A stretch of 64,000 nucleotides of DNA from Blasia pusilla (GCA_050084515.1 CM114271.1:27466001-27530000), one strand, 5' to 3'; shown: positions 1 through 49,769, numbered from the stretch's first letter. The notes: generated by a model from the letters alone, not told the origin. Numbers and translations are program-made.

Positions 1-1500
1 CTTTGGCTATATCAAAAGAGATTGAAGAAGTGGTAGGTTCTCTCCCACAAGTTGCGCTTTTATCACTACTTGTATCATTAACAAAAGAGAAATCGCATTG
101 CTTGCAAAGCATCAATACGTATGTTTGATGAATCCAAGAAGGAATAGGAAAATTGGAGTACAAGAAACAACTCATTTTTTCTAGGATGGAGCACTCAAGA
201 AGGACATGGATGTAGCCATGATGTGTATTTGAATGGCATATTAGGCAAGGAAATGTTGGACAGTCTCTCTAAACATGTACTGCAGTCCTACAAATAAAAC
301 ACCGCACCTCTTGTTGGTATGCATCATTTCCTTTCTTTCTAAAATCACCTTTCAAGACAAAAAAAAATTATTAAATGTCACATCTATGCTCACAACTATC
401 CAATGTGCACTCGGATCCCATATCATGTATTACTTCCACAAAGCTCCCATATTTGAGGAAGATAGGCTTCCTTGATTTTAATTTGCAATTTTTCTGACCA
501 CATCATCCTAGGATTTTTCCAATCAAAAGTAGTAGAGGGTGAATGATTTACCAAAATGCATAGAGTGTCTACTTCCTTTGCCCAAAAACTCTTCTCCAAT
601 ACAACATTGTTGATCTTATTCGTTGCTCTCTCCAACACTAGAAGCAATGTATTGTTTAGACACTAGCTTTTACAATTAGTCTTGGTTGTAAATCAGAGAT
701 TATGAATAATGACCAGATATAAAACTAACAATATTGTAGTGTTTAAGGACTTGGCGTATTGGATTCCCAGTTGTAAATAGACTTATCATCAATCTTACAT
801 GGCATGGTGGCAAGATATGACTTTGATATTTTGACACTAGATAGAGTAGAGTCATCAATTTTATGAGAATGATATGGCTCTAGTGACATGATGAGATAGA
901 GTGTAATAATGTGTAACACGTGCATGTATTTTAGATTCTTTAGTTGGACATTAGTATCATAAGTAATTAATTCACTAATATTCGTCTCAAAATAAGTCAC
1001 ATGTCCATATTTTGGTGTGCCATGTGGATTGTGGAGAACTATATTTAGTTGTAAATAAATGACATTTGTCTCTAATAGCTTATGCTTATCTGGTGAATTC
1101 CTACTTTAGAGACTATGGTCAGTTATCTTATGATTAGTTTTGGTTGTAGAATGTTAGGTGTAGTTGTAAATTGAGGCATATGACCAGTTTGGTACTTAAT
1201 GTAGTTGTATGGAATACCAAAACCAATCATCATTCTCATTTGAGAGTATGAGAGTATAAATGCCAACTTTCAACATTAACATTCTGTATGAGTGAATGTC
1301 CAGCAAGGATGTATTTTGTAGTTTCGTAGAATGAGTTGACATCGATATCTCAATTATGTGTCCACATTGTTTTTCGCAACCACAATTTCATGGACGCCAA
1401 TCCTTGTGATGTCTAGGATGAAGTAGTTGGAAATGTTGCAAATGTGTACAAGAGCTCTCTATGCTCAAAGCCAAGAGTCATCACATTGGCCATAGCAAAC
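1..1500 (-). mobile_element. Degenerate Ty1/Copia pol remnant (integrase region)
   Basis: ORF 423-647 reads LEKSFWAKEVDTLCILVNHSPST..WKNP (Copia integrase FWAEAVNTACYLVNRSPS); downstream WDPSAHWIVVSIDVTF; many stops. Boundaries approximate. Confidence 0.65.
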
Positions 1501-1677
1501 TGAATATCCTCTCAACTTCTCAGATTACTTAGGGAAGAAGAGTTGTCTATCAGAGAGGAGAAAAACTTGTGGGAGCCTTTAGGATCCAAATCTTGTCTTC
1601 ATAGTTGTCTTCTCTTCATCTTCTTCTATAATTCAAATTTGATAATACCCTTGCCTTAGGTTAATCTTGGTTAAATA

Positions 1678-1803
1678 TGTCGTGCGCATACACATCGCTA
1701 CACAACATACATCGCTGTCACCGAACACACACACAAACACGTATGATCCCATGCTAACTCATGGCATCCAAACAACGAGACAAGAAGTACCAAAATATCT
1801 CCA
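1678..1803 (-). repeat. Terminal repeat segment A2 of copy 1
   Basis: Near-identical direct repeat of 2321-2446 (tgtcgtgcgcatacacatcg...aaaatatctcca). Confidence 0.92.
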
Positions 1804-1805
1804 AT

Positions 1806-2318
1806 AAAGTAAGCTCCAATCTCTCTCTACACCATCTCACACCATAGCTCTCAAAGGTGTGCACTCTCTCTCATGTCAAACCAAACCCACTCTCCTAATG
1901 AGAGGCTTGGGTTACACTTACAAGGCAAGGTACCATAGCTCCGCCGCCTCATGCCAAGAGGTTCAACAAAGAGAGAATGAGATCTCAGGCTCTCTCTCCT
2001 TGAGGTATACGCCTCCCCTCTCCCAAGCTCTCTCCATGGTAACCTATTCTCCCAAGTCACCTCCTTGGCTCTTGACCTGATGAAGGAGGTCAAGGGCCAA
2101 TTAACAAAAATAGTAAGTCGATCATATACTAAAAATGGTACTTACCTAAAATAGTAAGTTCCTCAATATGGCTCCAAATGAGCCGAAACGAAGGGGAAAC
2201 CTGCTATCTCAGGTTTCCAAGGGCCTCAGTAGGTCAACCTCAACCTATTGGGCGTGTCCTCCACTACTCATGAAGGCGCTCTATTAGATCCCACCGATCT
2301 ATCCTAAAAGAGGTGACA
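1806..2318 (-). repeat. Terminal repeat segment B2 of copy 1
   Basis: Highly similar direct repeat of 12051-12563 (aaagtaag...cctaaaaga.gtgaca). Confidence 0.93.
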
Positions 2319-2320
2319 GC

Positions 2321-2446
2321 AGTCGTGCGCATACACATCGCTACACAACATACATCGTTGTCACCGAACACACACACAAACACGCATGATCCCATGCTAA
2401 CTCATGGCATCCAAACAACGAGACAAGAAGTACCAAAATATCTCCA
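2321..2446 (-). repeat. Terminal repeat segment A1 of copy 1, directly after the PPT
   Basis: Repeat of 1678-1803; on the minus strand it follows AGGGGGG-CAAT and starts with TG. Confidence 0.9.
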
Positions 2447-2450
2447 ATTG

Positions 2451-2458
2451 CCCCCCTA
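2451..2458 (-). promoter_or_regulatory. Polypurine-tract-like plus-strand primer site, copy 1
   Basis: Minus strand GCTAGGGGGG-CAAT-TG; same context in copy 2 (GCTAGGGGGG-CGGT-TG, ~27690-27704). Confidence 0.7.
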
Positions 2459-2628
2459 GCTGGTAGTTAGGTCCCTCTAACTCCAGATAGCCATCTATCC
2501 GTACCTACCATGACATACATCTCTCGGACGCTAAGAGCAAGAAGGCCGGGTGCTCATGTGGCCCCATCGTTAGTCGCCTCCTTGTCATCCATGTCACAGA
2601 GACAAGTCGGAATGTAGAACTACCTTCT

Positions 2629-3900
2629 CTATGTACATCTAGGACACATCCATCGTCCCTGAGGAACCCTAGTGAGAGGTGGCGTCAAACATGCCATATG
2701 CCATCCTCTCGAACACCCATCACAGACTAGCATCGTGGCCGCACCACGGGCAGAACCACACAACATACAACGCAAGCCTGTAGGAACTACTGCTAAGCTC
2801 GGATCTACTCTACGATCAATGTTAGGAAGGTGACATGGTGCACAATTACGCACATGGTCCTTCCATACCATACCATCGCGTCCCTCCAGCAAGAGAACAC
2901 TCGAAGGCAAAATGTCACGCACTCTCAGGATAGTGCGCCCTGCAGTCACATCCAACGTCGTCGGTGCCGTCTGCTGCAAGTAGACATAATCTCCTTGATG
3001 AAACCTCCGGATAGTTGGTCGATAACCACCACCTCGAATAGTCGCATACCTCAACGTATCCCGATGCTGTGCAATCGCCAAGTTCTCGAACGCCATGGGC
3101 ATCACTCTCCGAAATAACTCAGCCCTCTGAGAACATGCTCGCACCCATACATCTGGGTCATCAAGGTTGACATCTCACCAAGCATCTCGACGAATGGCGA
3201 GGTAAATCTGGCTCGGCCATAAAGTAGCAAATACGGTGAAAAAGACGCTAAGGATGCCTGCTGAATCTGTATCCCATCGCCAACCATGGCAACTGGAGGT
3301 CCCAATCTCCTAGGTGACCTCTCTGCAAGCCATACTTGCGTAAACCCCTCTTCACCGTCTGCACAACTCTCTCCGCTAATCCATCCGCCTCACGATGATC
3401 TCGCGAAGTCGCGGCGGTGGTCGATCGGCCTTTGATCACACAAGGTCCGGAACTCACCGCAAAACTCGGTACTGGTCTATCAACACCTCAGCCGGTGAGC
3501 CATAATGACTCAGCACTCTGTCAAGGAAGGCATAAGCTACTCCCTCACTTGCTTTGTCAGGCAATGCAACCAACTCGATCCACTTCGAGAAGTGCTCGAC
3601 CATCATCAACACATAACGACTGTGACGCTCCGTCAAGGGCAAAGGTCCTGCAAAATCCAAACTCCATCTATACCCTAAGCCCATGATCGGTAATGGATGC
3701 AACTGTGGAGTCGGAGCATTGAACGATGCTCGGACCCGATCACACACCATGCACTTGGCAACAAACTGCAGAACGTCAGTCTGCATGCCTCGCCACCAAT
3801 ACTGAATCTGGAGCAAGCTATACGTCCGCTTCACCCCAAAGTGACCCAACTCCTCATGGGCATGCTGCACTAGTCGTGCTCTCTGCAAAGGATGTGGCAC
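2629..3900 (-). pseudogene. Gypsy integrase with C-terminal PHD finger (frameshifted)
   Basis: HAHEELGHFG...CMVC zinc finger, WSLDFAGP, VLIDQ, DGLAERVVQTVK; PHD CMLC...LVCDGCSRGWHMACL...VPQGRWMCPRC at ~2630-2770. Confidence 0.9.
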
Positions 3901-4329
3901 TACGCGTACTCTGCCATCCTCCCAAACCCTCAAAACATGTGTCCCCTCCCAACGGAACCGTCTGGCCCGCTGTAGGATCCGATCCCGCTCTATAGCATCC
4001 ATGGTGCTTGCAAGGCTGGCAGTACGAAGGTACTCTAAGACTACTCCATCATCATGAATATCTCGGCCACTTGTCGTGTCCTCACTGGCCTTGGGATCCA
4101 AGGACTCTCTACTAGACCTCGCCATCGAAGTCTCCACACTCTGGCTCTTCATAGCCAACATGCCTAAATAGGCTGACGCGTGCCATCCTGGCACCGACTC
4201 CTCATCACTCTCTCCATGCCATCGAGATCCAGTCGCATCTCGCTGACTCGGGCATGGGTTACGACTCAACCCATCTGCATCCAGGTTGAGCGTCCCAGGT
4301 CTATGTACCACCTGAAAATCATACTCCTG

Positions 4330-5696
4330 CAACAACAAAGCCCATCTCGCAAGCTTCCCTGTAAGCAGCCGGACTCCATCAACCACTTCGGTGGTTGATG
4401 ATCGATGATGATGGTAAAGGGTTGCCGAATAAATAACGTCTAAAATGCGCGACGGCCCACACCATGACCAAGCACTCACCCTCATACGAGTTGTACTTCG
4501 CCTCTCTGGCGTTGTTCGAGCGGCTAGCATAAGCCACCACGAACTCTCTACCCTCATCATCATCTTTGGGTGAGCACCGCTCCAAGCCCCAACATGCTCC
4601 AATCTGTGTGCAACTGGAAAGGACGCCCCCTGATCGGTCTCCTCAAGATGGGTGCGGACGTCAACCTGTCCTTGAGCAATTGAAATGCTCGCTCCTACTC
4701 ATCCCCCCAGTGCAACTCGTGATCCACCTTGGTCAGCAAGGTCAGCGGCTTCGCAATCGAACTGAATCCCTTGACGTATCGCCGATAGAAGTTCGCCAAT
4801 CCCATGAATGCGCGAACACGACTCACATCTGTAGGGCGTGGAATGCGTGAGATAGCCTCTACCTTCGTCTGCTGAACACCAAGGCCCCCTCGATATATGG
4901 TATGACCCAAGTACTCAATCTGGTCGCAGAAGAACTTGCACTTGCCTGGATGTAGCTTCAGCCCATGTAATTGCAATCGTCAAAACACCTCCTCTAGATG
5001 TTGCTCATGCTCCTCAAACGTGGCGCTAAAGACTACGATGTCATCAATATAACACCTAGCAAAATCCAGACCAGCCAAGATCCTATCCATGACCCTCTGA
5101 AACTCAGCCGGGGCGTTCTTTAACCCAAATGGTAAGAACCGCCACTGGTACAAACAATCCTTCCCGTGAGGATCCATGCCCCAAAATGCCGTCTTCTGCC
5201 TATCCTCCAATCTGATAGGCAGCTGATGGTACCCCGCTCGCAAATCCAATGAATTGAAGACCTTTGCATGACCAATCGCATCAAAGATCTCCTCAGGGGT
5301 GGGCATGGCATACCTATCGGACTTCGTCTGCCGATTGATAGGTCGGTAATCCCCACACATCCGCCTATCCGTCCAATTGCCATGCACATCCTTCTTGGCG
5401 GGCATGACAGTGGCAGATGCATACTCCCCATGCGACATCTCCACTAGTCCTGCTCCGACCAAGTCCTGGCTCCTACTCTGAATCAGAGCCCTCTCCATAT
5501 CACTGTACCTATAGGGTCGTCGGAAGATCGGCATATCACTCGACAACTCAATGCGGATCCACGGTCCCTTCAGCGTACCCAAATCCTCCATGCTAAACGC
5601 AAAGCAGCTCCTATAACTCCTAAGGAACTGATGTATTCGGCGCCGCTCTCCTCCTGTCAACTTAGGGCCCATATCTGGCTCCCAAGTCTCCATCAT
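4330..5696 (-). pseudogene. Gypsy reverse transcriptase and RNase H (frameshifted)
   Basis: RMCGDYRPIN, SLDLRAGYHQ, LPFGLKNAP, YIDDI; RNase H VVAYASR...YNSYEGECL, KLARWALLLQEYDF. Confidence 0.95.
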
Positions 5697-6039
5697 GACT
5701 ACGGTAGGACTCTCCGGCGCGGGTATCGGTGGTTGCTATGATGCAACCCCGTCTCGAACAACAACACTTCGGCCGCTCTCCTGCAGCCAAGCGCAAACTC
5801 GATCTCCTCCACGTCCGATTGCCCAAAACCACGCTCGATGTTGTGGCTATCATCTCCTTGCGTACCTTCAAAACATCCCAAGAAGTCCAAGGGTGTCTCT
5901 CCCGATCTCCCCTGGTGCGTAGATCTCCTCGGGTCTCGCCCCCAGCCACTACCTCCACCGTCTCGGTAGGCATGGGGCTCACCAACGCAACTTGTGATTG
6001 TGATCATCGCGATCTCATACGACGCTGCTCGCCACTCCC

Positions 6040-6990
6040 AAGCCGAGGATCCATGTCAGCGATTTAGGTCCATCTCTGACCCAAGACATGGCGTCGTGAT
6101 GCCCTCGACATCTTGATGGTACTGCGGTCACTCCTGTGGGAAATCACATCGCTCGCTCTCTCTCGTCGGCGTTGGGCTCCACCAACCGCTGAACCTGGTC
6201 ATCCCAAACCAAGCCAGGACCGGCCTCCTTGTATGCATAGGAAGCGGGAAAACTCACAAACATGGGCAAGGCTGCCCGCGGCCTGCCTACCCTATTGACC
6301 ACAGTCAGCGGTGGTCGATCATCGTGCCTCATTGCCTGTGATCGACGACCTGGATCCAGAATGGAATCCTCTAACAAAGGGGAGGGGCGCTCCACTCTCG
6401 CATAGGCCCTCCATAACACCGCATGGGGCACCAAGTTGGTCCACCATAGACGCGGGCGATGGGCTCTAGAACCTACACTCGCCGCATCCAAGAACACTGC
6501 TGGGCCAATCCAGGCACGCACCTAATGAGCACTCGTCACGACCCGTGACCTGGAGTCTCCTAAGATCGGCACATTCTCCAGAATGTAGGATGGAGAACAG
6601 GCGGGCGCTCTGCAGCTCTTTGTAAGACCCTCACAATCTCCCAAAACAACTTTGGACCGAGTGTGACCAACCCGCTGCCTCGTCCGAAGACTCGATTGTA
6701 CGACATGGCCAATCGGGCAATGACCAAATCAATGGTCCCTACCGCTCTAAGCCTGCGCCCCAACAACAAAATATCCCTCGGTAGGGAACCTGTTACCAGA
6801 TCTGGACTTGCATGAACAATAAGTCGGGAAAACGAGGCGTAATTGCGCCACATGTCATAGTGAGACGCGCCCGCAACATCATCACTCTCCACATACAAGT
6901 CTTGTTGTACTCGCACTCCTGCAAAAAAAGACTAACCCAAAGTGCTAATCCCTCCAAAGAGATCTAACACTCGAATACCCTCCTCGGGGT
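6040..6990 (-). pseudogene. DNMT3-like C5 cytosine methyltransferase domain inside pol (frameshifted)
   Basis: PEEGIRVLDLFGGIST (motif I), IDLVIA../WPC (IV, frameshifted), LFWEIVRVL, YILENVP (VI), AHRPRLWWTN (VIII), DERERAM (IX). Confidence 0.85.
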
Positions 6991-7299
6991 ACACCACACA
7001 ATGGGTGTGGTATCCAAGGGTGTCATCGTAGCACTCCTGCTACCTTGGGTTCCTCGGACCCCTCACGCTGGTGCAAACGCCTCGCTCCACGCGGTCTTCA
7101 CGTGCTCATCTGCCAATCGTTGAAGCTCCTCAGCGGCACCTCTCCTCCACGGAATGATGCAGCTCCCATAACACTCCTCTCCATAGAAATGTCAGGAACG
7201 GGAGTATCCTCTGCATGGACATGTCCCTCAATCAAATCACTAGGCCAAGTGAGGGCACTTTGCTAAATCTTTGCTAGGTCGCCATCTCTCTGGCGTTTC

Positions 7300-7760
7300 A
7301 TCATCCGCACTTGTGAATCGAACGGGTAATGAGCTAAGGCGCCCATCACCGATCGCCATCCAGTGCAGAGGGGCCGACTCCTCCCAAGTAATCAAGGAAA
7401 ACCCCATCGGGTATAACACTGCTCCACCAACCAAGACGTCGTAGGACTCAGCATCAGTCACTATCGCCTTGGCGCGCACCACGGACTCATCTATAGGATG
7501 TCCCGGGTGAATCCTCACCATGACCTCCTGTCGGGTGATATACTGTGTGGTACTCGCTCCACCCAAGGATGTCTGTATCCGAAATGGACAACACTCCACA
7601 TCGGCTCTCGTCAAGCCCAATCCTCTGAATGAAGCTTTCCCCAACATCAAGGGTTTCCCCGACAAGATGCGCTGCGGACTAAAAGCTCTACCTCCAGGAC
7701 TCGCCAACTGGAAGACCTCTCCTCGGTTATCCAGCAACACAACACCAGGAGAAGCCATGG
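7300..7760 (-). pseudogene. Aspartic protease region of copy 1 (active-site motif partly deleted)
   Basis: VLLDNRG...RILSGKPLMLG...YDVLVGGAVL; homologous to the intact VLLDSGAQPLMLG of copy 2. Confidence 0.75.
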
Positions 7761-8399
7761 CACGCTCTATCGCGGGTCTAGCGGGCATCTCCGCCATCCT
7801 AGCAGCCGCAGCCTGCCATGAATCTGACGTGGACGGCCTGAGCATCCGCTCCAAGGGCAGGTCCATCACCTCCTCTGCAATCACCTCCGAACATGATGCA
7901 GGAACTCCAACTCCGCGCTCACATAGTGAAGCGGCCAGCCGAAAAGCCTCGGCAGGCGTACCCCCCAACGTCACAACATCGGAAGCAGAAAATAAAGGAG
8001 TGCAGTACACAATGGTGGCCGCCCCCAACAACGTGCTCGACACATGCCCCTCCTGAGCCTCAACAATAGGAGTCGTCGCACTTGCTTCTCCCATCGCCCT
8101 CCGTGCCTGCATACCAGCAACATTACCAACTCTCCAAGAACTTTGATGAGGACCCATCGGTGGGGTCCTCATCGCTTTGGACAACGTGAAAGATTGAGGA
8201 AGCCTAGTCAAATCTTGGCTTCCCCTCATTTGTGGATCAACTCTGCGGCCGCTCCTCCATGCGTCACAAGCTGCGGCGGCCTCCATGTGGGCAACCCCGC
8301 ACATCCATCCGGATCCTCCGGATCTCTGGCGCTCCATATGATGTCGATGCCCACGGATCCGGCATCGGGTAACCTCAATGCCATAGCGGCAATCTGCTC

Positions 8400-10250
8400 C
8401 TCGTAGGCCGCAGTATCGGCGACCATCCCAGCCTCACGTCTGGCATCTCCCTCGGTGCGTCTAGGTGGTGGTACTCTACCTCCTCCACGGGCAGCTCCAC
8501 CACCCTATCGGGCAACTCCAGCTCCTCGTCCCCTAACGGGACCACCTGGTGCACGATCTCTAGGCCCACCCGGACCGGCTACTCGATTTGGTGCCCTCTC
8601 GGCCTCGGTCGGACATAACTTTCAGATGTAAACTGAAACACCTGGCGCGTGTATGACCATACCTCTGACAATAGTCACAATGATAACCTCCTGGTGTAGC
8701 ACTATCTCCTCCTCCATGCTGAGGCACACGTCCATGACCCTGACGAGTGCAATCGCGCTGATGATGGGCTCCATCACATGACCAACAAGTAATAGTAGGC
8801 GGCTGCAGCTGAGCCGCATATGAAGGCGCAGGTCTCTGTGGCACGGCCTCCCGGTATCCTCCCTGAGCTCCTGGTGCCACAGTCGACCTATGTCATGACC
8901 ATACGGATTATGTCGTAGAGTATGGTGTGCTGGTAGAGGCCATTCCTTATGTAGGACCGTAGTGGCTTGGTAGAGATGCGGTTCCATCCATAGGGTTGGG
9001 GGTTACTCACTTGGGGGTGACTTTCCCAGTAGGGCCCGCTCTTAGGTTGGAGGATATAAGGTGGCTTGCCCTCAAAGAACAGTCAATTCTTTGAGTTGAG
9101 CCTGTTGCGTTGGGAGTTAGCCTTGGTAGTGAGTAGAGCTCTTGGCTATGGTGTTTCCCGCAAGCTTCGACCTAGATTCTCCCATCGTGGAGTGGGTTTG
9201 GCTCGATTGTATGTGATTTAAACGTGTTTTATGACGATGAGGTCTTTCACGGATTTCAGTTGTGGTACACTTGCGTTTGTGGATACTCTCGTCTATGTTA
9301 TGTATGTATGTGCGTATGGTATGTCAGCGATGTATGTTGTATGACGATGTGGATTCGCACGACACCTATCTCGGAGTCCACGTTGCTGCACAGGTGGTGC
9401 AGACAATCGTGACTGCTCTCGCCTAGAACCCATGGTGGCTACGCTCTCCTCCGCCATGTTGCGCTCAATGTTCTCGGCGGTCCTAAAAACATCTCTCAAC
9501 GTAGGGGAGGTGTTCATAAGAAGCACCCCCTCCCGCACCCGTGTCCGCAGGGTCCGGTCCAGCATCGCGTACCATGATTGGATAGCCTGAGCCTCTGTCA
9601 CCCCTTGAGTGACGTCGATCAACCGGCGCAAGCAAGTGTAAGCCTCACGCAAACTCTCATCCAGGCGCCTCTAGAAGTCGTGGATGCTCCGCAACTTCTC
9701 CGTCCGTACCCCCTGGTAGCTCGCCCTCAACTCAGCAAAGAACTCAACCACAGGGTTGAACCTGGGATGGCCCCGACTAGATGGGCAACTGCTCCCATGC
9801 GAGTGACTCCTCCTAAAACGTCACTAGTGGAAGAGGCAATAGCCTCTCCTGACTCCTCCTCCTTATCTGGGAACGGCTCCGTCCATGACACATAATGTGG
9901 GTCATAGTAGAGCCTCCACGCCTCGATCTCACATGCATATCTCTAAGAGAACTCATGGTAATCGTCCATGGGCGCCCCCTCTAAATGCTGGAACATACCG
10001 TTCCATGCTGTAAATGGGTTGAACTCTCTAGAGTTTCTGGCCCATTGGGAGTCGCACCAACTCCTAAACTCGCTATAAAATCGTGCAACTCAATCGTGCC
10101 CCTCTTTTGCACTGAAAACCTACGTGGTCCTCTATCCCGGTCGTCCATCTCGTACGCCCGACTGGTAGGACCATTCACAACGTGTGGCGATGTGCTCACA
10201 AACTCCTCTACACCCTCCCCTCGTCGGCGATGACACGAGGAAGGAGGTGA
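8400..10250 (-). pseudogene. gag of copy 1 with two zinc knuckles, interrupted by an insertion at 8891-9364
   Basis: CWSCDGAHHQRDC and CDYCQRYGHTRARC; ESLREAYTCLRRL capsid-like segment; collinear with copy 2 gag. Confidence 0.8.
8891..9364 (+). mobile_element. Solo terminal-repeat element of a related family inserted in gag
   Basis: TGTC...GACA termini, 4-bp TSD CCTA (8887-8890 and 9365-9368); right end resembles the reverse complement of segment A (cgatgtatgttgt...cgcacgaca). Confidence 0.85.
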
Positions 10251-12050
10251 GGTGGTCCCTCACGTGGAGACCCTCGGAACCTCGCGCCACTCGCGTAAAA
10301 CCTCTAGAGCTACTCTCGGGTTCACCACCTCGCCTCTCAAAGTCCCGAACGGACTCCGTGATGACCCTCGTGCCCCTCTCACCTGATCACTCTGAACCTC
10401 GTGAGGAATCCCTCAATCACTCATCCCAAACATGCGGCACTCGATCTACACTCTCTCTCCCCGAGACGTATAACGTGCGGCAACACGTGGCGTGGTGCGG
10501 CAAATCGACCAGGCTATCATCTCATCGACAACCTACCCTCAACTTCGGACATCCCACACAGGTCTATGTCCCCTAGACCACATACATAAATGATGCTCTC
10601 AGCATCCACACACCCAATATCCCCAAATAAATCCCAGAATCCCTCACACGTGTAGGGTAAAGGACCAGAATGGGTAACCTGAACACATGTCGATGTCGCT
10701 CCTCAGCAACTGCAAATCTCGACCCCAACTTGATCGTGGAGACAACTCCTCCAATCAGCAAGTCATACTCCTCCCGTAGTGATGCTGCTCAAAACTCCTC
10801 GATAGACAATGCGGTCCCAGCGGAACGGTGCGGCGTTGCAGGCGGCACGGAACGGCTACGAACGGCACGGCCCTCGATGGTGGGATGCGGCACTCGGCGG
10901 CATACCATCCTCAATCAATAATAATCCCTCACTCTGCTCCACAATGACGGTGCGGCTCCGCGATCGAGACGGTGCGGTGCGGCCACGAGCGGCACGGCGC
11001 GGCAATCGGCGACGCGTTGCGGCTACGGGCGTCACGGCACGATACTCGATCGTCGTCGAGCGGCTTCCAATCACAACATAGCAGCATGAAATCAAAACTC
11101 AAACACCATAACCGGAGGTCATCTGCCATCACTGGTTGATGAAGAAACTGCGATGACGGTGGCGGCCAAAACAAAGTACGTGCTGGCGACGCAAGTCAAG
11201 GAATCAACGAACGTCGTGGAAGACCACACCATGGAGAGCTTGGTATGAGATCTTGATGTGAGATTTCTTAGATTTATTGGGGATATTTTGGTACTTCTTT
11301 TCTCGTTGTTTGGATGCCATGAGTAAGCATATGCCTCCACTCCGTAATGGCGGCAATGGCACCCAAAGTGTGGACAATGGACGGTGGACCGTTGACAGTG
11401 ACGGCTGACCGCTGATGGTGATGGCCGACCGGTGACGGTTGACCATTGACGGTGACTATGATGGCGACGGCCGCCGCCGGTGTGGCGGCTGATTTAGGGT
11501 TTGCACAATTTAACCCTAAAAATCGCCTAGCAATGGCAGCTTTACAAGATTGACCCTAACTTTTTGCTCGCAACTCCAAATTGTGCACTATTTGTTGCAC
11601 ATCCTGCACAGCTTCACGATCTACGTGAGCATCAAAAAATATTTAGAATCGGACATTGCAGTAAAGATTGACGGGGACTGTCGTAAAGCCCAATGTCTCT
11701 TTCTCCTACACAAAATTCGGCAGCGCTCCCGCGCTGATTTCTCCCAACGAAAATGTAACATCTGTAAAAATACAAATCAGCAAGCTACATGGTGCTCTCG
11801 AGAGCACCAGCATGGGCAACCTGCCCCCATACTCAATCCCTATCAAAAATTGGGCAGCGCTTCCGCGCGCCACTCTTCCACACGAAAAATCGGTAAATGC
11901 AAAGAATAATGAAAGCAACCCTTGCTCCGGTGAGCACTCCCATGAGCCGCTGAACGGGGAACACGGTCCCCAACCTGCAAAAACAGCGAGTGACCAGAGA
12001 GCTCCCCCATGAAGCTCTCTCACTCTCTCATTCTCTCATTCTCTCTTTGT

Positions 12051-12563
12051 AAAGTAAGATCCAATCTCTCTCTACACCATCTCACACCATAGCTCTCAAA
12101 GGTGTGCACTCTCTCTCATGTCAAACCAAACCCACTCTCCTAATGAGAGGCTTGGGTTACACTCATAAGGCAAGGTACCATAGCTCCGCCGCCTCATGCC
12201 AAGAGGTTCAACAAAGAGAGAATGAGCTCTCAAGCTCTCTCTCCTTGAGGTATACCCCTCCCCTCTCCCAAGCTCTCTGCATGGTAACCTATTCTCCCGA
12301 GTCACCTCCTTGGCTCTTGATCTTATGTAGGAGGTCAAGGGCCACTTAACAAAAATAGTAAGTCGATCATATACTATAAATGGTACTTACCTAAAATAGT
12401 AAGTTCCTCAATATGGCTCCAAATGAGCCGAAACGAAGGGGAAACCTGCTATCTCAGGTTTCCAAGGGCCTCAGCAGGTCACCCTCGACCTACTGGGCGT
12501 GTCCTCCACTACTCATGAAGGCGCTCTATTAGATCCCACCGATCTATCCTAAAAGACGTGACA
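12051..12563 (-). repeat. 5' terminal repeat segment B1 of copy 1
   Basis: Repeat of 1806-2318; no adjacent A segment. Confidence 0.92.
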
Positions 12564-13680
12564 AATACTTGGATCCTACCACCGCATCATACAAGTTATC
12601 TACCATAGGCAACAGATACTTGTTCTTAATAGCCTTTTTCTTCAATGCCCTATAATCCACACACAATCGGAGAGAACCATAGTTTTTTGAGTTTAAAAGG
12701 GAAGGGCGTCGAAGCTCCAACCTAATTATGTGGATGAACATGTTTTCCTCCAATACCTCAATATGCCCATACAAGAGTTGAAGTTCGTGGGGAGTCATTC
12801 TCGAATCTCCATGGGTTCCTCCCCATTGGGGTAATTATGTATTTAAGTTCAATCTTATGATCCACATCTCTCTCAGAGTCTCAGGAGAAAACCATTTTGG
12901 AAGTTCCCCAGTCAAGACATTCCAATCCTTCCAAGATTTTCCTCATCTTAGGCATGAGATCCCCCGTAAGTTCCTCCTTTAGTGATATCTTGTTATGTTC
13001 AGACTCCATAGGTTTCAACTTGACTCCCTGACATTGGAACCCACCCTTAAGACCCTTCTCAAATGTTTTTAACAGACATCATAAGAGCATGATATTTTAC
13101 TTGATTAACGCTCAAAATTTGAGGACACACATTTGCAGTTTGAATCTCAAGAACCCTCATGGTATTTCCATCACAAAGAGAAAACTCTAATATGTCTTTG
13201 GCTGATCTAATAACTTAAATTAGCATTTGTATGCAAAAACCTAAGTGATGAAATCATATCCATTCTACATAGGCTACATACTTCAAGAAGACCTCAACTC
13301 CCCCAATGGCCCTAGGAATCTAATAAGTCCCAAAATATGCTTTCCCTTAGTCATATATTGATTGAGATGTTTAATGTCCATCTCAGTCCTATGCATGGGT
13401 AACTTCATCAACCACATACTCCATTCAAGCTTGTGGTTGATCCTTCAACGCCTCAAACATGGCATGTTGGATCTCATTGAGATTCGTCGGTGATTAGACC
13501 CCCATGACCTTCCTTTGAGAGTATCCCCTCATCCTCTTTTTCAATGATAATGACTCCTTGGGCACATGTGCTTGGGCTTCGAGTCCCTCAAGGTTGAGGT
13601 CTTCCAACAAGTTTCCAAGAGTCTTCAGCAAGGATTTTTTTTTCCAAACGGTGTTTTTTCCTTGTATCCCTCATTTTGAT

Positions 13681-14045: not shown

Positions 14046-14266
14046 TCTTAGGGTGTGGAGTGCTTTGAATTGAGGCAAAGAAGAGTAGAGGTCAAAATCT
14101 GCAACATAATCTAAGAGAAAACCACCATGTAGGCCATACTCAATGGATGGACCCACCAAAATCATCCATTGAGTATGGCCTACATGGTGGTTTTCTCTTA
14201 GATTATGTTGCAGATTTTGACCTCTACTCTTCTTTGCCTCAATTCAAAGCACTCCACACCCTAAGA
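14046..14266. repeat. Apparently perfect ~104-bp inverted repeat with 13-nt loop
   Basis: 14046-14149 is the reverse complement of 14163-14266; additional partial direct copy at ~14017-14051. Confidence 0.9.
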
Positions 14267-20530: not shown

Positions 20531-23500
20531 ATGACGAGGAAAAAAACTCAAGCAAGCAAGCCTGGGAGCTTCACTCCCAAGTCCAAGACTCCTGCGTCAC
20601 CATCTCCAAGGCCTCGTTCGGCCAATGAGATAAGGCAGCAAGAGATCGAAGAGCGCAAAAGGGAAGCGGAGATGCACAAACAAGAGCTTCTTGCAAAACG
20701 TGTTGAGGAGGCGATCGAAAAACAGAACGCAGAGGCTGAGGCGTCGTAGGCCTTGAAGAAAAGCATCGCCGGGGGGGAGTGTGAAAAGAACCGTCTGGAC
20801 GCGTCGGTGAGGAGAGCAGAATTGGCAAAAGCTTGAAGGGAAAAAGAGATTGCCATTGAAGAAAGCCGGGTCCGTCCAATCGAAAGTATTGAGATGCAGG
20901 AAATGTCTCTGATGAAGTCCGAGGACACAATCAATATAAAATCGGCTGAGGAAATGGGCGAAGTTCAAGTGACGGATGATGAGGTCATGAGGACCGCCAG
21001 CGTGGAGATGGTGGACATCTCTAAAGAAGCAGGAGAGCGGTCTTCCTCGTCTCTTAGCCCGGCGGAAGAAATCAACCTCTATCGGATCGACGAGTTTCCA
21101 GTGGACTTGCCATTTCTTTGTCCCAGCAGCGGTTGGCTAAGACATATCGACCCAATCTTCGAGCGGGTAATATACAAAGTTTGTTCTTTGAGTTATGTGA
21201 AGGCCCATGTTGCAATTCATTGGCAATTCAGTGTAGTTTATTGACCTTGTCCCCGTTGTGACAGGTGGTAAAGCAAATGGCACTGATGGAGGGCCAGAAC
21301 GCCCCGAGAATTCCACTTTTTTGATTGCGGACAATGGAGTAGGTCCGCAAAATTCAGTCTGACGAGGATATTGCGAAGCTGAAACAATCGGCAGCGACAA
21401 CATCCTACGTCAACAGCTTCCCTCCTCTATGTTCAGCCTTACGATGAACATGGAACCCAAGCGCTGGTGACGGAGGAGGACTTGGAAGCGCTCAACACAT
21501 TCTGTAGGATGAGAGATCAGGAATTCAGAAGGGCGATTGAGGGGACGGAATTCAGCTGGATGCGGAACCTGTATTTCTTCATCTGGGATGGAAACCACAG
21601 GTTCATGGCGTGGACCCAGTTTGCAGAGGAGTGCCAAAACTCATTGGAGGCGCATTTTTGCGTGAAGGCACTCGTGCTACATCCATACCCTCATCACATA
21701 GCGACGGTGGAGATGGCCATGCATGTCATGAACACGTAAGTTTCCTCTTCCTTTCTTTTGATTGCTGCAAACTGTCGGACTTCGACGAGTTGTTTAACTA
21801 GTGGTAACAATACATCGGATGCCTTAAAGCAACTTGTCGAAGTTCGACGAGTTGCTTGACTGGCTGCTGTTTTTAGGATATTTTTGGCCGAAAGCAACTT
21901 GTCGAAGTCCGACGAGTTGCTTGACTAGCCGCTGTTTTTAGGATGTTTTTGGCCGAAAGCAACTCGTCGGAGTCCAACGAGTTGCTTGACTAGCCACTAT
22001 TTTTAGGATGCTTTTGGCCGAAAGCAACTCGTCGGACTCCGACGAGTTGCTTGATTGGCCGCTATTTTTACGATGTTTTTGGCCGAAAGCAACTCGTCGG
22101 AATCCGACGAGTTGCTCGATTGGCCGCTGTTTTTAGGATGCTTTTGGCCGAAAGCAACTCGTCGGAGTCCGACGAGTTGCTCGACTGGCCGTTGTTTTTA
22201 GGATGCTTTTGGACGAAAGCAACTCGTCGGACGTCACTTGATTTTTGGCGTCAAATTGCAGCTTTACTTGAAATTGCGCAACCTGTCGGACTCTGACGAG
22301 TTGATATGTTCACTTTTCCAGCGGAGACCACTCTTTGAATACAAATTATCTGACAACCCGTCGGAGTCCGACTGGTTGTAACCAAACAATCACAAATCGG
22401 AATGCTATCCGTCGGACTCCGATGGGTTGCAATATTTAGCTCGTAGCTACCATTCCGACCATGAGGTGTGGCAACCTGTCGGAGTCTGACGGGTTGTAGG
22501 AACCCATGTAGCTTGCAAAAATTCTTATATTGTGTTTGGATGTGCAGGATTGTATCTGAGGGGAATGTCACCCACCACTGGATCCAGAATTGCGATCGGG
22601 TGAAGAAAGTGCTAACGACGCACCCGGCAGAGTACAAGGGGTTCTTGGGCGATGCTTGTAAATGAGATGCTGGCGAAGGGGGCTCAAATAAAAAAAAAGA
22701 CTTGGGAAAATATATTTATTTCCCAAGATGCAGCCGTGACAATCCTTGCTGGTTGAAGCTACAGGCCACCAAGAAGAGCGCTTCATTGGAGTTGGAGCGG
22801 AGGAAGAATATGTCTGTGTCTGAGCGTGCTAAGTTCATCCAAGTTGCAGTATCTGCAGCTACGAAGTACACTGCAAGGAAGATCCAGCGCTACATCGCCA
22901 TTCTCAACCCCAAACTTGGCCCCGATTTCTACAAGGAGCTGAAGGCGATAGTCAAGCGCCAGCGGAAGAGGGATGAAGATCTGCAGGGTCGGATTGGGGA
23001 GAAAGTATCTCTCAATCGCGTCCATCGATTTGCCTTGTCTGGAATTTCAGAATTTAGGAGAATCCGACTGATGAAAATCAGTCTCGAGGGCATAGAGGCC
23101 CAAAAGAGGGCGGCACACCATCCTCCGGGTGTCTCTGTTCCAGTGATCTCCCACTGGCTCCGTGAATGATCATTCTGGGACGCGTTGCGGCCTCTCGAGA
23201 AGTCCATGCTCGTGGGTCTCCAAGCCGAGCTGAAAAAAATAGAGCCTGTTCCGAAGGAAGCAAACCTAGAGAGTGGTAAAGATTTCGAACTTTGGCTGGA
23301 TGACATCTGGGACAAGCCCATAAAAAACCCACTCTTCAGGATGATGTTTAAGGATCACATCCTCCCTCAAGCAGACCTTGATGAAGAAATAGAAGCGAAG
23401 AAAAAAGATTTCACAAAGAAAAAATGAGATCTTCAAGGGCAGGCGGCCAATGCATCTCGACTAAGAGCTACCCAACGCATGGTATTCAGGTACCTCGTCC

Positions 23501-26573: not shown

Positions 26574-27232
26574 ATGTGGGCTTTGCTTTGTGAATCAGCA
26601 CCGCATCTTGGACTCTCCTCCGTAGTTCTTGGTCAAGTACCCCGTACCAATACTGGATTGATTGCGCCTCACTCACTCCATACGTAGCAATGATCAGCCT
26701 CCTCATGCGTGTGAATGCCTCTCTTAGACTCTCACCTGATCGTCGCTGAAAATCCTGTAGACTCTTCAGCTTGTCGGTGCGTACGCCATGGTAGCTCTTC
26801 CCCGACTGTCGGAAGAACTCCACTGTGGGGCTAAAGCTCGATGGCCCTCTACCACCAGAGATCTTTGCCACATCACGTGTCTAACTGCCCTCCTCTCCAT
26901 CTAGTCTCCTGGCTGATGGTGTGGGTCTCTCTCCTCTCACAATCCCATCATATGCCTCGTGACCACTAGTGGACATATACCCTGGAGCCCAATACATCCT
27001 CCAGGCATCGATCTCTACTAAATATAGTGATCAAAACTCCATGTAATCATCCATCAAAGGACCCTCCAAGTGCTGGAATAACCCCTTCCATGCCATGAAA
27101 GGGTTGAACCGTGTCGGGGTCCGTATCTCCTGGAAGTCGCACCACGTGTCAAACTCCTGGATAAAATCATCTAAGTCGATGGTGCCCACTGCACCCAAGA
27201 AACGACGCATTCCCCGATGGCCCATGTCGTCC
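26574..27232 (-). pseudogene. gag fragment of the copy-2 family fused to a truncated B repeat
   Basis: Diverged copy of ~34078-34730 (GTIDLDDFIQEFDTW...FNPFMAWKGLFQHLEG). Confidence 0.85.
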
Positions 27233-27769
27233 AACATGAGAAAGATGGCTTAGGAAAGCGATCTTCCTCTCTTATATAGGGTTGGGAAGAGCCAAAAGGC
27301 TCTTTCCCTAAAAGTAGCCCTCCCGTTGGTAACCTGCGCGCACAGGTTACTAGGGGCGGGTGACCTGGTCAACAAGTCATTCGGCTGTGAAAGACCTCAA
27401 CATGAAAGTTGTCAAAAACAACGTTCGTGACACAATGGACCTATCCTCAACCTCATCCAACACAGTGGGACAAAGTTACACTCCAGATAGTCCATTGGCT
27501 CCTACGCCCTATCCACGATAGATCTCCGCCTATCAACTACCCAGATGTGACAGTTGTCGTGCGCATACATATCGCTACACAACATACATCGCTGGTCACA
27601 TCTACACCACACAACATCAATCTTCCCCACACATGGGTCGATCCACACATGTACAAAAATCAACTTATACATATACATGGAGATCACACAACCGCCCCCC
27701 TAGCTGGCAATTGGATCCCCCCTAACTCCAGATAGAAAATATCACATATCTCTCACATTACCTACAACC

Positions 27770-29060
27770 CTATACACATCCATCGTCCCGTGGGAACCAC
27801 ATCAAGGGGGGGGTCAGACATGACATATGCCACCCTCGAGAACAACCATCACATACCAATATGGTGGTTGCACCCCTCGCAGATCCGCACAACATACACC
27901 TCAAGCCTCTAGGTACCACTGCCAAGCTCGGATCCACTGGCTCATCTACGTTCGGAAGATGATATGGCCCACAATTGCGCACATGATCCTTCCAAACCAT
28001 ACCATCTCGTCCCTCCAACATGAGGACTCCGGTCGGTAATAACTCGCGTACACGTAGGATCGTGCGCCCTGCAGTGACATCTAGCGTCGTGTGTGCCTCT
28101 AGCTGTAAATACACGTAATCTCCAGGATGAAACCTCCTAATCCTTGGACAATAACCTCCTCCACGAATGGTCGCGTACCTCAATATATCTCTATGTTGAG
28201 CAATAGCTAAGTTCTCAAAGGCCATAGGCATAACTCTAGGAAAATCCTCCGCCCTTTGAGAACATGCTTATATCCACACATCTGGATCATCAAGATCTAA
28301 CACCTCTACCATGTCACATCGAATCGCTTCAGGTAAATCTGGCTCTCTCTCAAAGAGAAAAAAGTACGATGAAAATGACGCCAAGGATGCCTGTCGACTA
28401 AAGCGATAATCCATAGCCAACCATGGCAAGTGTAGGTCCCACTCCATCAACTATCCCTACTGCAAGCCATAATTGCGCAATCCTCTCTTCACCGTCTGTA
28501 CCACTCTCTCCGCCAACCCATCTGCCTCAAGATGATCTCTGGACGTGGTGCGGTGATCTATCAGCACCTCATCACACAAGGCCTGAAACTCTCCCCTGAA
28601 CTCGGTACGTTGGTCAGTCAACACCTCCGCCGGTGCACCAAAGTGACTAAGCACATGATCTAGAAATGCATAAGTTGGTTCCTCGCTCACCTTGTCCGGT
28701 AGTGCCACCAACTCTATCCACTTGGAGAAATGCTCCACCATAACCAACATGTACATATGATGACGCCCCGTCAATGGCAAAGGTCCCGCAAAGTCTAAAC
28801 TCCACCGATAACCTAAACCCATAATCAAAAAAGGATGTAACTACGGAGTGGGAGCATTGAAGGATGCTAGCACTCTGTCACATATCATACATCTGGCCAC
28901 AAACTGTTGTACCCCAGTATGCATGCCGCGTGACCAATACTAAATCTGGAGTAAGCTGTAAGTACGCTTCACTCCAAAATGTCCCAACTCCTCATGGGCA
29001 TGTCGTACTACACATGCTCGCTAGGAAGGATGAGGTACCACTCGTATCCTACCATCTCCC
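27770..29060 (-). pseudogene. Integrase plus PHD finger of copy 2
   Basis: WSLDFAGP, VLTDQRTEF, DGLAERVVQTVK; CMLC...LVCDGCSRGWHMSCL. Confidence 0.9.
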
Positions 29061-29439
29061 CATACCCGCAAAATGTGAGTCCCCTCCCACCTGAACCTCT
29101 TGGCTCTCTGTAGGATCCGATCCCGCTCCCTTGCACTCACTATGCTTGCTATGACGCTAGTGCGCAAGAACTCCAAAACCTCCACGTCGTCATGGATATC
29201 ACGACCACCTGTCGCCTCCTCACTGATCTCCGGATCCAAAGACTCATCATCCAATCCCACCACTGAAGTCACCACATGTGGTTGACCTGCCATAGTCAAC
29301 CAACAAAGATAGGCATATGCATGCCAATCGGGCACCATCTCCTCATCACTCTCTCCGTGCCATCGAGCTCCTGTGTCGTCTCTCTGACTCGAACCTAACC
29401 CATCCGCATCTTGGTTCAGCCGACTTGGCCTATGAACCA

Positions 29440-30760: not shown

Positions 30761-31059
30761 CTCGGAGAGGACGCAACCTCCGGCTTTGGTTGCCATGTAG
30801 CAACCCTAGCCACCTCCGCAACAGCCACTCCACTCTGACCTCCTACACCATGCTCCATATCCAAAAAATGAACATGTGTTACTCTGGCCACCTTCGCACT
30901 CTCCGCTCGAACGACGTCCCAAGAAGTCCATGGGTGCCTATCTCTCCTCGTCTCGCCCCCAGCCAATGCCTGTATAGACCCTGGAGGCAATGGTCCAACT
31001 CGTGGACGTGACGGCATGGATGACACTCGCATCCGGCTCTGCTCAGCCATACCTGGGCT

Positions 31060-32010: not shown

Positions 32011-32344
32011 GGCACTGCCACACAACGGGTGTGGTATCCAGTGGGGTCAAGGTCTCCACTCCAAGAACCCGATCGCCACGTGACTCTCGCTGCTGCGCGA
32101 TAAAAGCATGACTCCACGCTTGCCTCACGAGGTCATTGGCACTCCTCTGTAGCTCTCGAGTCGTACCCCACAATGGTGAAGAGGTCTCGCCAACATGGGA
32201 AGAGACACCCGCCATGGCCTGTCTCTCCGTGGGACTATCCGCTACTAGGACATCCTCCGCATGTGCGTTCCCCTCCAACAACTCTCTTGGCGAGCTAACA
32301 CTAGCTGTGAAAGCTGCCAACGTGGTCACAGACTCGCCTCGTGA

Positions 32345-48508: not shown

Positions 48509-48624
<116 letters not shown>

Positions 48625-48629
48625 TGTAT

Positions 48630-49769
<1,140 letters not shown>

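Follow-up and report, generated by a model that had tools for sequence, protein, structure and literature searches.

Permuted terminal repeats in a Gypsy-DNMT3-type retrotransposon of the liverwort Blasia pusilla

Introduction

Retrotransposons that carry a cytosine methyltransferase next to Gypsy domains have a described precedent in the alga Klebsormidium nitens, where KnitGypsy-Dnmt3, which has a methyltransferase of Dnmt3 type within pol, combines the Gypsy domain set with DIRS-type repeats in the order A-coding-B-A-B (de Mendoza et al., 2018; PMC5890265). The portions of that report considered here give no termini, target site duplication (TSD), att site, boundaries for the polypurine tract (PPT) and PBS, or mechanism (PMC5890265).

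Split direct repeats (A1-B1-A2-B2), of which one stands at the 5' end and three stand at the 3' end, with an internal junction in which the two ends of the element are put together, are described for the PAT-like and Ngaro tyrosine-recombinase retrotransposons (PMC4157794). Self-priming is described for the Tf1/Sushi/Tcn1 chromoviruses, which have ordinary identical LTRs (PMC6317226). In addition, the integrases of foamy virus and HIV-1 are reported to cleave the palindromic LTR-LTR junctions of 2-LTR circles (PMC1180852; PMC1905944; PMC4372172). The palindrome in retroviruses is the U5/U3 joint itself, and this route is minor or disputed.

The window discussed here is the whole stretch of 64,000 nucleotides of Blasia pusilla DNA that was analysed, and it contains a decayed copy, element 1, of a Gypsy-DNMT3-type LTR retrotransposon (gag-PR-Dnmt3-like methyltransferase-RT-RH-DDE integrase-PHD). 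The original prediction for this locus knew of no description of such a case for a Gypsy element, and its claim of novelty fails on the Klebsormidium precedent (PMC5890265). Going by the available description of the algal element, the repeat layout has already been noted once, in a related alga, and what is added here is a liverwort member, for which the termini, the TSD, the att site and the sites of priming are described.

Termini and repeat order

Element 1 occupies 10.9 kb on the minus strand of the window (12563-1678) and reads, in its own sense, B1, internal region, a G-run PPT, A1, gc, B2 and A2 (B-internal-PPT-A-GC-B-A). It starts with TGTCAC and finishes with CGACA (TGTC...GACA ends), and it is abutted on both sides by TATT in the element sense, or AATA on the plus strand, which forms a 4-bp TSD (12567-12564 on the 5' side; 1677-1674 on the 3' side, at the end of A2). 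Excising the element with one TATT leaves a continuous host Ty3-type reverse transcriptase (RT) frame, reading ...GSKYLTKINLRQGYYQI... across the rejoined site.

The two copies of B (B1, 12563-12050; B2, about 2318-1805; both on the minus strand) are 96.5% identical over 514 nt, with 18 differences, and B1 starts directly with TGTCAC, with no A before it. Alignment of A1 (minus strand, about 2448-2321; aligned part 2448-2322) with A2 (minus strand, about 1805-1678; aligned part 1805-1679) covers 127 nt at 98.4% identity (E 1.7e-59), with 2 differing sites. A2 ends in CGACA and has one base in common with the end of B2, so that the B2/A2 junction reads cttacttt/attggag.

Between A1 and B2 lies an att-like junction (2315-2324, minus strand) made of the end of A, GC and the start of B. 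Its family reading, GACAGCTGTC, is a 10-bp palindrome in which both integrated ends stand back to back with 2 nt between them. Element 1 itself reads GACT-GC-TGTC here; nearly all family reads carry the base that gives GACA-GC-TGTC, and at this palindrome-making place (2321) the base accounts for 3526 of a depth of 3529.5 in X3 and for 25/25 and 60/60 RNA reads. A second copy in the window, described below, has GACA-AC-TGTC at the corresponding junction (27558-27549). Several parts of the original prediction are thereby confirmed: that the AATA TSD and the rejoined host RT fix the boundaries, that B alone stands at the 5' end and PPT-A-B-A at the 3' end, and that the internal A/B junction resembles the two termini joined by 2 nt.

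An alignment of eight junctions and ends from five lineages has CACGACA at the end of A in all eight (CATGACA in copy 3), and TGTCAC follows the end of A in all four internal junctions that reach that far. Copies 1 and 2 agree at 96% over the final ~45 nt of A, whereas the remaining repeat sequence is not alignable. Reads that run out of the end of B enter the leader (agreement 0.92 for 16 X1 contigs and 0.82 for 39 X22 reads) and not a variety of flanking sequences; insertion therefore does not end there. Two listed contig pieces (X1 record 1 and X3 record 11) cross the B/A junction, with 27 letters on the shorter side; because the bar for junction-crossing pieces was 31 letters on that side, the reads give no independent proof of this junction in other copies of the genome.

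Conservation of the layout

The window holds two further copies. Copy 2 (26574-37042, minus strand) belongs to a diverged family, with about 75% identity in pol, and has the form B-internal-A-B plus a second internal part: B' (37042-36721), a 2-kb leader, gag to PHD, a PPT, A ending at 27555, the nucleotides ac and B (27552-27231), after which comes a second gag piece (27233-26574) that is leader-deleted and truncated. Copy 3 (48074-50119, plus strand) is a rearranged and internally deleted derivative that starts with TGTCAC, ends with GCGCATGACA and consists of B, an inverted piece of B and A; its flanks, TTTA and TTCA, are alike at three of the four TSD bases. Both copies had been predicted to show B...A-B, which holds for copy 2 (A-ac-B) but not for copy 3, where the inverted piece of B is present and no internal A-B junction was found.

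The left end coincides with the start of B in all three window copies, which represent two diverged families, and the right end coincides with the end of A in both window copies that have a right end. Element 1 is the only complete copy with a verified TSD; copy 2 is without a right end, copy 3 is rearranged, and the related locus L002 is without its 5' half.

Relatives outside the window have the same order of parts. L002, from an unrelated assembly and with 60% identity in the integrase, reads PPT-CA-A (106 nt)-GC-B-A-flank, with its two copies of A identical; L001 reads PPT-A-GC-B-PBS; and L003 (45% identity) has a PPT, about 117 nt and then GCACGACA-GC-TG at the contig end. The motif CACGACA-GC-TG lies downstream of the PPT in both L001 and L003. 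Judged from the sequences of these independent relatives, the permuted layout is a trait of the clade.

Protein domains

Several of the coding regions of element 1, all on the minus strand, were located by tblastn with the ORFs of copy 2. The degenerate gag region (8599-10386), with an N-terminal part and two CCHC zinc knuckles, is matched at sense positions 2178-3154 and 3672-3965, and its CCHC motifs were seen in the translation of copy 2. An aspartic protease region (7315-7773) was found in the same way, with an LLDSGA motif in copy 2; the protease of L001 matches Asp_protease_2 at E 7.8e-4, under the Pfam cut-off. The reverse transcriptase (4980-5735; RVT_1, E 4.9e-21) is followed by RNase H and an integrase with an H2C2 zinc finger and a DDE core (3454-4698; Integrase_H2C2, E 5.4e-17; rve, E 7.5e-7), which is frameshifted past the second D, and by a C-terminal integrase part with a PHD finger (2629-3174; PHD, E 1.2e-11). 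In copy 2 the integrase can be seen to carry the D, D and E motifs, and DD35E motifs are conserved throughout the family.

Between protease and RT lies the remnant of a C5 cytosine DNA methyltransferase (6474-7244), homologous to a copy 2 ORF (31446-31808) that matches PF00145 at E 4.9e-10; the motifs FGG, PCQ and ENV were read in copy 2, to which this region of element 1 corresponds. PF00145 is present in copy 2, L001 and L003, and among solved structures the L001 domain best matches DNMT3A, 3B and 3C (E about 5e-8). In L001 and the copies of the window the methyltransferase precedes RT, and in L003 it lies between RNase H and integrase.

The original prediction of a DDE integrase, and not a tyrosine recombinase, agrees with the H2C2 and DDE domains and with a scan for the tyrosine recombinase domain PF00589, which was found in none of 35 ORFs (30 from two window copies and 5 from L001 and L003). 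The best matches of the element proteins are from the liverworts Riccia, Calypogeia and Marchantia, and K. nitens proteins that combine integrase and PHD have 38-39% identity to the window integrase.

Priming sites and internal complementary regions

In Tf1 self-priming, the 5' end of the RNA is complementary to a site directly after the 5' repeat. A putative Tf1-like self-primer binding site lies at the corresponding place in element 1, directly after the end of B1 (12034-12049, minus strand), and is complementary to a B1 segment (B positions 338-353; 12211-12226, minus strand) that is the predicted RNA 5' end and self-primer. This segment is a perfect reverse complement of the leader start over 15-16 nt, a length reached in none of 2000 shuffles of B, and a TATA-like GTATACC lies ~31-33 nt upstream of the predicted RNA 5' end in B1; no clear start is listed for the element in the read data. 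B2 carries the same self-primer motif at about 1982-1967, and L001 has an analogous site with 17/19 matches (7412-7430 versus 7236-7254). The resemblance to the Tf1/Sushi/Tcn1 elements (PMC6317226) lies in a repeat segment, placed at the expected transcription start, that is reverse-complementary to the bases directly after the 5' repeat.

The PPT (ctaGGGGGG, then CA; 2449-2462, minus strand) ends 2 nt before A1, the same ...TAGGGGGGGCA precedes A in L001 and L002, and in all three elements A begins 2 nt past the polypurine run. With the start of A set 2 nt past the PPT and the end of B at the putative self-primer site, the LTR defined by reverse transcription would be A+B, which supports what had been proposed as the true LTR. 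On this reading of the sequence, the repeat built by RT is A+B while the integrated ends sit at the internal palindrome. In element 1 and L002, no priming site was found beside the B start or the A end. The linear cDNA defined by RT has no CA at its right end, which is negative evidence that is compatible with circular permutation.

Two internal segments are complementary to the repeats. ICR1 (11225-11330, minus strand) is the reverse complement of the junction between the end of B and the start of A, that is, of the joined cDNA ends (113 nt, 83%, E 1.4e-20), with 52/55 matches in its A half and 41/57 in its B half (Fisher p = 0.002). Copy 2 and L001 gave no match to ICR1, which is known from the element 1 family and not clade-wide. 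ICR2 (9299-9370, minus strand) shows a weaker match, in reverse complement, to the final ~63 nt of A (72-76%; score 36 over 63 nt), and its start is the inverted terminus; it was not found in copy 2.

Discussion

Element 1 has the pol order PR-RT-RNase H-integrase with a DDE integrase and H2C2 finger, TG...CA ends and a short TSD (4-bp TATT), as expected of Ty3/Gypsy elements (Metaviridae); the equal terminal LTRs of that group are replaced by B alone at the 5' end and A-B-A at the 3' end, with the PPT abutting A1. A Dnmt3-type C5 methyltransferase inside pol, recognized from solved-structure matches, and the A-coding-B-A-B layout with Gypsy domains place it with the Gypsy-DNMT3 elements as these are described for Klebsormidium, from which it differs in its host, a liverwort and not an alga. 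Insertion in the DIRS order (DIRS1, PAT, Ngaro, VIPER) typically occurs without a TSD. Element 1 shares split direct repeats with this order, and an ICR-like segment in element 1 only, but has a 4-bp TSD and no tyrosine recombinase in place of the DDE integrase among the 35 ORFs. PAT and Ngaro differ from it likewise in that element 1 has Gypsy-type RT and RNase H, a PPT, a self-primer site and TG...CA ends.

We lean towards the reading that elements of this clade are integrated as circular permutations of what reverse transcription makes, with the palindrome opened by the DDE integrase. The linear cDNA would be A-B-internal-A-B, and its U5 end (the end of B) would join the U3 start (the start of A) to give a 2-LTR circle or a head-to-tail concatemer. 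The integrase of the element would then cut after each CA of one internal palindrome, CACGACAGCTGTCAC, leaving recessed CA-3'OH ends and 2-nt 5' overhangs, as in a processed retroviral end, and insertion of the opened molecule would yield B-internal-A-B-A. Of the possible forms, this one alone would have all that the next cycle needs in the stretch that runs from the B1 transcription start to where B2 ends. Because a head-to-tail linear form yields the same product, a closed 2-LTR circle is not singled out as the substrate. Against the circle model, retroviruses normally integrate linear cDNA, and their 2-LTR circles are usually deemed dead ends. The proposed step resembles the foamy-virus and HIV-1 reactions in that a DDE integrase would act on a palindrome of two element ends in circular DNA; in element 1, however, the palindrome is internal to the LTR that RT defines, and the provirus keeps its U5/U3 joint (B/A) intact.

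Reverse transcription alone might instead make a terminally redundant linear cDNA, either through unusual priming or through one more template switch, leading from the B end to the A start; the integrase would then trim or use ends at the A/B palindrome, and no closed circle would form. Its product would be the same, so that sequence cannot tell the two apart, and the 1-nt overlap at the B/A junction is what a copy-choice jump leaves. ICR1, the reverse complement of that junction, could template it in the element 1 family; its lack in copy 2 and L001 means that it cannot be a general mechanism, and with no priming site found next to where B starts or where A ends, we regard this route as unlikely. 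Integration of a circular cDNA by a tyrosine or host recombinase, with ends not set by the DDE integrase, would account for the match to the PAT and Ngaro layout; given the absence of PF00589 from the 35 ORFs scanned, the TGTC...GACA ends and TSD that mark DDE integration, and the DD35E motifs conserved through the family, it is very improbable.

The same low standing applies to a secondary origin of the layout, in which unequal crossing-over, nested insertion or deletion would have rearranged an ordinary A-B...A-B element. Copy 2 (B-internal-A-B-internal') does resemble a product of unequal recombination and copy 3 is clearly rearranged, but this explanation is largely refuted by the exact TSD and rejoined host frame at the start of B and end of A, by the identical left end in all three window copies, by PPT-A-GC-B-A in L002 and the att motif in L001 and L003, and by the layout likewise reported for Klebsormidium. 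Least credible is an A-B-A end created by assembly: repeats are prone to mis-joining and the locus is known from an assembly and not from spanning long reads, yet the differences between B1 and B2 and between A1 and A2 mark distinct copies, the entire block is only about 770 bp, and the independent assembly of L002 has the same block followed by flank.

A broader form of the permutation reading is tentative: the whole streptophyte clade of Gypsy-DNMT3 elements, from Klebsormidium to liverworts, may integrate obligatorily from circular 2-LTR cDNA by way of a conserved 10-bp palindrome inside the LTR. If so, the circle-precursor route of retroviral integration, long abandoned, would have a natural and fixed counterpart in these elements, which would also represent a convergence with tyrosine-recombinase retroelements that accounts for the split direct repeats common to both.

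Boundaries and order of the repeats

Self-comparison of the Gypsy-type element at window positions 12563-1678 on the minus strand (element 1; 10,886 bp) revealed two families of direct repeats, A and B. Read in the sense direction, its order is B1, leader and coding region, ctaGGGGGGca, A1, gc, B2 and A2, where the two B copies (B1, 12563-12050; B2, 2318-1805; both minus strand) are 514 nt long and 96.5% alike with 18 differences, and the two A copies (A1, 2448-2321; A2, 1805-1678; both minus strand) are 127-128 nt long with 2 differences. The element starts with TGTCAC and ends with CGACA, TATT is found on either side of it, and a Ty3-type reverse transcriptase (RT) frame in the host sequence is uninterrupted again once the element and one TATT are excised (...GSKYLTKINLRQGYYQI...). 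The TATT at both ends and the restored host frame therefore indicate that the boundaries and the permuted order, both part of the original prediction, are real. The accompanying concern that the A-B-A end was a misassembly is answered by the repeats themselves, since B1 differs from B2 and A1 from A2, so this end is not an assembly duplicate. The divergences of the A pair and the B pair are compatible with a single age (Fisher p = 0.39). The insertion lies within the RT of another, old Ty3-type retrotransposon (900-1677 plus 12568-13400, minus strand), an AT-rich sequence that contains stops.

Conservation of the layout in copies and relatives

In all three copies in the window (element 1; copy 2, 37042-26574, minus strand; copy 3, 48074-50119, plus strand), the left end lies at the TGTCAC of B without a preceding A, and in both copies that possess a right end it lies at the ...G(C/T)GACA of A. 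Copy 2 represents a diverged family, with pol DNA that is ~75% alike and repeats that align solely over the final ~45 nt of A (96%) and the initial bases of B, and it reads B-internal-PPT-A-ac-B (PPT, polypurine tract). Past its second B, this copy runs into a second gag piece without the 2-kb leader and is then truncated, so that the second unit looks like a product of unequal recombination plus deletion. The leader loss has its break at a 3-nt match (tgg; 27231-27233 vs 36721 and 34730), as a template switch or an end-joining deletion would leave, and the 2-kb leader of copy 2 also contains a 341-bp tandem duplication (98%; 35709-36392). Copy 3 is short and rearranged: it has TTTA/TTCA flanks and contains a 1-kb insert, (GA)n arrays and part of B in inverted orientation, and the A-B order once ascribed to it is absent. 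Its two long (GA)n arrays (48510-48625 and 49650-49767) lie on either side of the insert, which is ~1 kb of unrelated sequence; the piece of B (positions ~166-353) that is inverted beside them begins right after a sequence resembling the self-primer site, like a snap-back product.

An integrase scan of prokaryote genome contigs for relatives identified four loci, one of which (L004; 27% identity over 100 residues, on a 1-kb contig) was left out, while 32 pattern matches among viral contigs included no relative. The remaining loci, L001 and L002 from a cyanobacterial MAG and L003 from a Minisyncoccia MAG, are eukaryotic contigs of the Gypsy-DNMT3 kind (Gypsy elements that carry a Dnmt3-type methyltransferase) filed under bacteria, which indicates binning contamination. 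L002 (integrase 60% identity) reads ...TAGGGGGGGCA, an A of 106 nt that ends TTTACACGACA, GC, a B of ~360 nt that starts TGTCACGGG..., a second, 100% identical A, and unrelated flank. L001, which is from the same assembly and 87.6% alike, has intact PR-DNMT and RT-RH-IN-PHD regions. Its order is PPT-A-GC-B, and a 19-nt site directly behind this B agrees at 17 positions with a stretch further inside B; its contig begins and ends with the same 127 nt, as expected when a collapsed repeat is assembled into a circle. L003 (45% identity) has a G-run, ~117 nt and then GCACGACA-GC-TG at the contig end. Across eight aligned junctions or ends from five lineages, A ends in CACGACA in all but copy 3 (CATGACA), and the four internal junctions long enough to show it have TGTCAC after the 2-nt spacer. 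The permuted layout is a clade trait and no one-off; the initial observation was right and more general than it had supposed.

Coding content

When ORFs were scanned one by one with Pfam, element 1 matched RVT_1, Integrase_H2C2 plus rve and a C-terminal PHD finger, and copy 2 (37042-26574) matched PHD and C5 DNA methylase (PF00145, E 4.9e-10). Translations and tblastn of these two copies, both of which contain stops and frameshifts, gave the gene order gag (two CCHC knuckles), protease (DSG), methyltransferase, RT, RNase H, integrase and PHD. The D, D and E motifs of the integrase are intact in copy 2 and conserved over 18 aligned relatives. The search for a tyrosine recombinase that had been proposed as a check yielded no Pfam match among 35 ORFs (30 from both strands of the two copies and 5 long ORFs from L001 and L003), and the family has a DDE integrase instead.

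The Dnmt3-like C5 methyltransferase (FGG, PCQ and ENV motifs) lies between protease and RT on the minus strand, at 31446-31808 and in the neighbouring frames 31736-32344 and 30460-31758 in copy 2, and at ~7244-6474 in element 1; for the methyltransferase of L001, an intact relative, the best matches among solved structures are DNMT3A, 3B and 3C. The closest protein relatives of these elements are in liverworts (Riccia, 73%; Calypogeia; Marchantia) and Sphagnum, with Klebsormidium nitens integrase plus PHD proteins at 38-39% and many further relatives among JGI sequences, and many annotated 'proteins' of Marchantia polymorpha, Sphagnum and Calypogeia are this retrotransposon Dnmt3-like methyltransferase domain. 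In L003 (3061-9516), which has a single intact ORF of 2152 aa, the methyltransferase follows RNase H and precedes integrase and is not found before RT, so within the clade this domain has either changed place or been acquired twice.

Elsewhere in the window, ten ORFs matched no Pfam family. Six 65-bp units form a tandem array at 21761-22280, in a GC-richer stretch whose ORFs are without a Pfam match, and a perfect inverted repeat of 104 nt (14046-14149 and 14163-14266; 100% complementary) has a 13-nt spacer.

Reverse transcription and the repeat joints

The start of A1 is 2 nt past the G-run of the PPT, and the 15-16 nt directly after B1 are a perfect reverse complement of B positions 338-353, a length reached by 0 of 2000 shuffles of B; a TATA-like box is located 31-33 nt upstream of these positions. 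Tf1 uses a self-priming mechanism, and the complement after B1 is predicted to allow self-priming of this type. Self-priming has also been described for plant Tcn1 elements (PMC6317226). With the PPT beside A and the self-primer site after B, the plus strand would begin at the A start and minus-strand synthesis would leave the B end as the other cDNA end, so the expected product of reverse transcription would be A-B-internal-A-B, with A+B as the LTR. The B2/A2 joint in the genome (cttacttt joined to attggag, with one shared base) is exactly the two predicted cDNA ends fused. The A1/B2 joint places both integrated ends back to back across a 2-nt spacer; it reads GACT-GC-TGTC in element 1, and at place 2321 nearly all family reads have GACA-GC-TGTC, a 10-bp palindrome.

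Element 1 also contains two internal reverse complements of its repeat ends. ICR1, 720 nt into the leader, is a 113-nt reverse complement of the joint of B end and A start (83%, E 1.4e-20), with an A half (52/55) that is better preserved than the B half (41/57; p = 0.002), and ICR2, in gag, is a weaker complement of the A end. ICR1 and ICR2 may aid 5'-3' pairing or templating of the joint in the element 1 family only; no such complements were found in copy 2 or L001, so they were dropped from the general mechanism and are outside the general design.

Genomic and RNA reads

Window 900-3200 was compared, at 90% likeness, to the contigs from two DNA runs and the raw reads from two RNA runs, all with the same species label. 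There were 128,417 matching contigs in one DNA run (X1) and 7,159 in the other, and summed word depth, which is not equal to copy number, was 10^4 to 10^5 in the element vs <10 in the flank; the family appears highly repeated. RNA was almost wholly element-sense (e.g. 171 vs 11.5 and 211 vs 6.8 in bin 1901-1977). Reads that exit the B end enter the leader, with agreement of 0.92 and 0.82, which fits a B end that is no insertion end, and loose read ends beside the A start resemble the continuation of ICR1, indicating that ICR1 is common in the element 1 family.

The B/A joint was crossed by two of the contig pieces listed, with a shorter side of 27 letters that is under the 31-letter threshold, and by none of the RNA reads listed from the two RNA runs, so the reads alone do not prove this joint in other copies. 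RNA depth was 58 and 38 at place 1814 (the B end) vs 9 and 18 at 1742-1744 (in A2), with 39 reads of one RNA set (X22) passing from B to leader. These figures suggest that part of the sense RNA continues beyond B into A; they were not counted as evidence since no spanning read is listed. A separate RNA joint, 2007 to 2502 (4 + 8 reads, 3-nt overlap), is without GT..AG and was not seen in the DNA contigs; it connects sequence immediately upstream of the PPT with the part of B around the TATA-like box, so that the PPT, A and ~310 nt at the beginning of B are left out.

A model for integration

The layout could be explained if the U5 end of the cDNA were joined to the U3 start, in either a 2-LTR circle or a concatemer of head-to-tail units, and integrase then cut one internal palindrome after CA on each strand. 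With a 2-nt spacer, this cut would leave both CA-3'OH ends recessed behind 5' overhangs of 2 nt, like retroviral ends after 3' processing, and insertion of the opened molecule would give B-internal-A-B-A. Since the internal A1-GC-B2 would be transcribed, the cut site would be passed to the next generation. A2 would be a by-product, although one could speculate that its T-rich joint with B serves transcript termination, and cuts at two different sites would yield B-internal-A or B-A, which would be replication-incompetent.

The original prediction was that integrase opens a circle inside the LTR. The anatomy, the DDE integrase, the TG...CA ends and the target-site duplication (TSD) are observed, and cleavage of palindromic LTR-LTR junctions by integrase has been reported for foamy virus and HIV-1 (PMC1180852, PMC1905944, PMC4372172). 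The closed form of the substrate is unproven, as a linear concatemer produced by an extra template jump fits the sequence too, and the two cannot be separated on this basis. Integrase action on joined cDNA is thus an interpretation that is well founded in logic, with the circle itself as its unproven part.

Relation to known elements and implications

TOC1 of Chlamydomonas, which has been called a non-autonomous DIRS element, has split direct repeats. Such repeats define the PAT and Ngaro tyrosine-recombinase elements (PMC4157794), and the DIRS arrangement has been defined as A-coding-B-A-B (Fig. 1e, PMC5890265). KnitGypsy-Dnmt3 of Klebsormidium, which has Gypsy domains, is said in a figure legend to have repeats 'the same as that of a DIRS retrotransposon' (Fig. 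4c legend, PMC5890265; de Mendoza et al., 2018), so the earlier claim that no Gypsy element had been described in this way was too strong, this layout having been noted once. A 2026 preprint names 'streptophytes (Gypsy-DNMT3)', and in the literature searched, supplements aside, there was no account of the termini, TSD, att site, priming sites or mechanism for a permuted Gypsy layout. Element 1 is therefore a liverwort representative of a known, barely described kind, and what is new here is the anatomy, which suggests that integrase acts at the internal palindrome.

The permuted order has practical consequences, as such elements will be missed, or given wrong boundaries, by LTR finders that assume equal repeats at both ends, and dating them by LTR divergence must pair B1 with B2 or A1 with A2. 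The family is sense-transcribed and apparently highly repeated, and bench tests are feasible since relatives are annotated in Marchantia polymorpha. The split-repeat layout is common to LTR and DIRS-order elements, and is a possible mechanistic bridge between them. Circular precursors were the subject of classical experiments on retroviral integration, and the question had been thought settled against circles; if the ends of these elements are set at the internal palindrome, a retroviral-type integrase can routinely use joined cDNA, whether circular or concatemeric.
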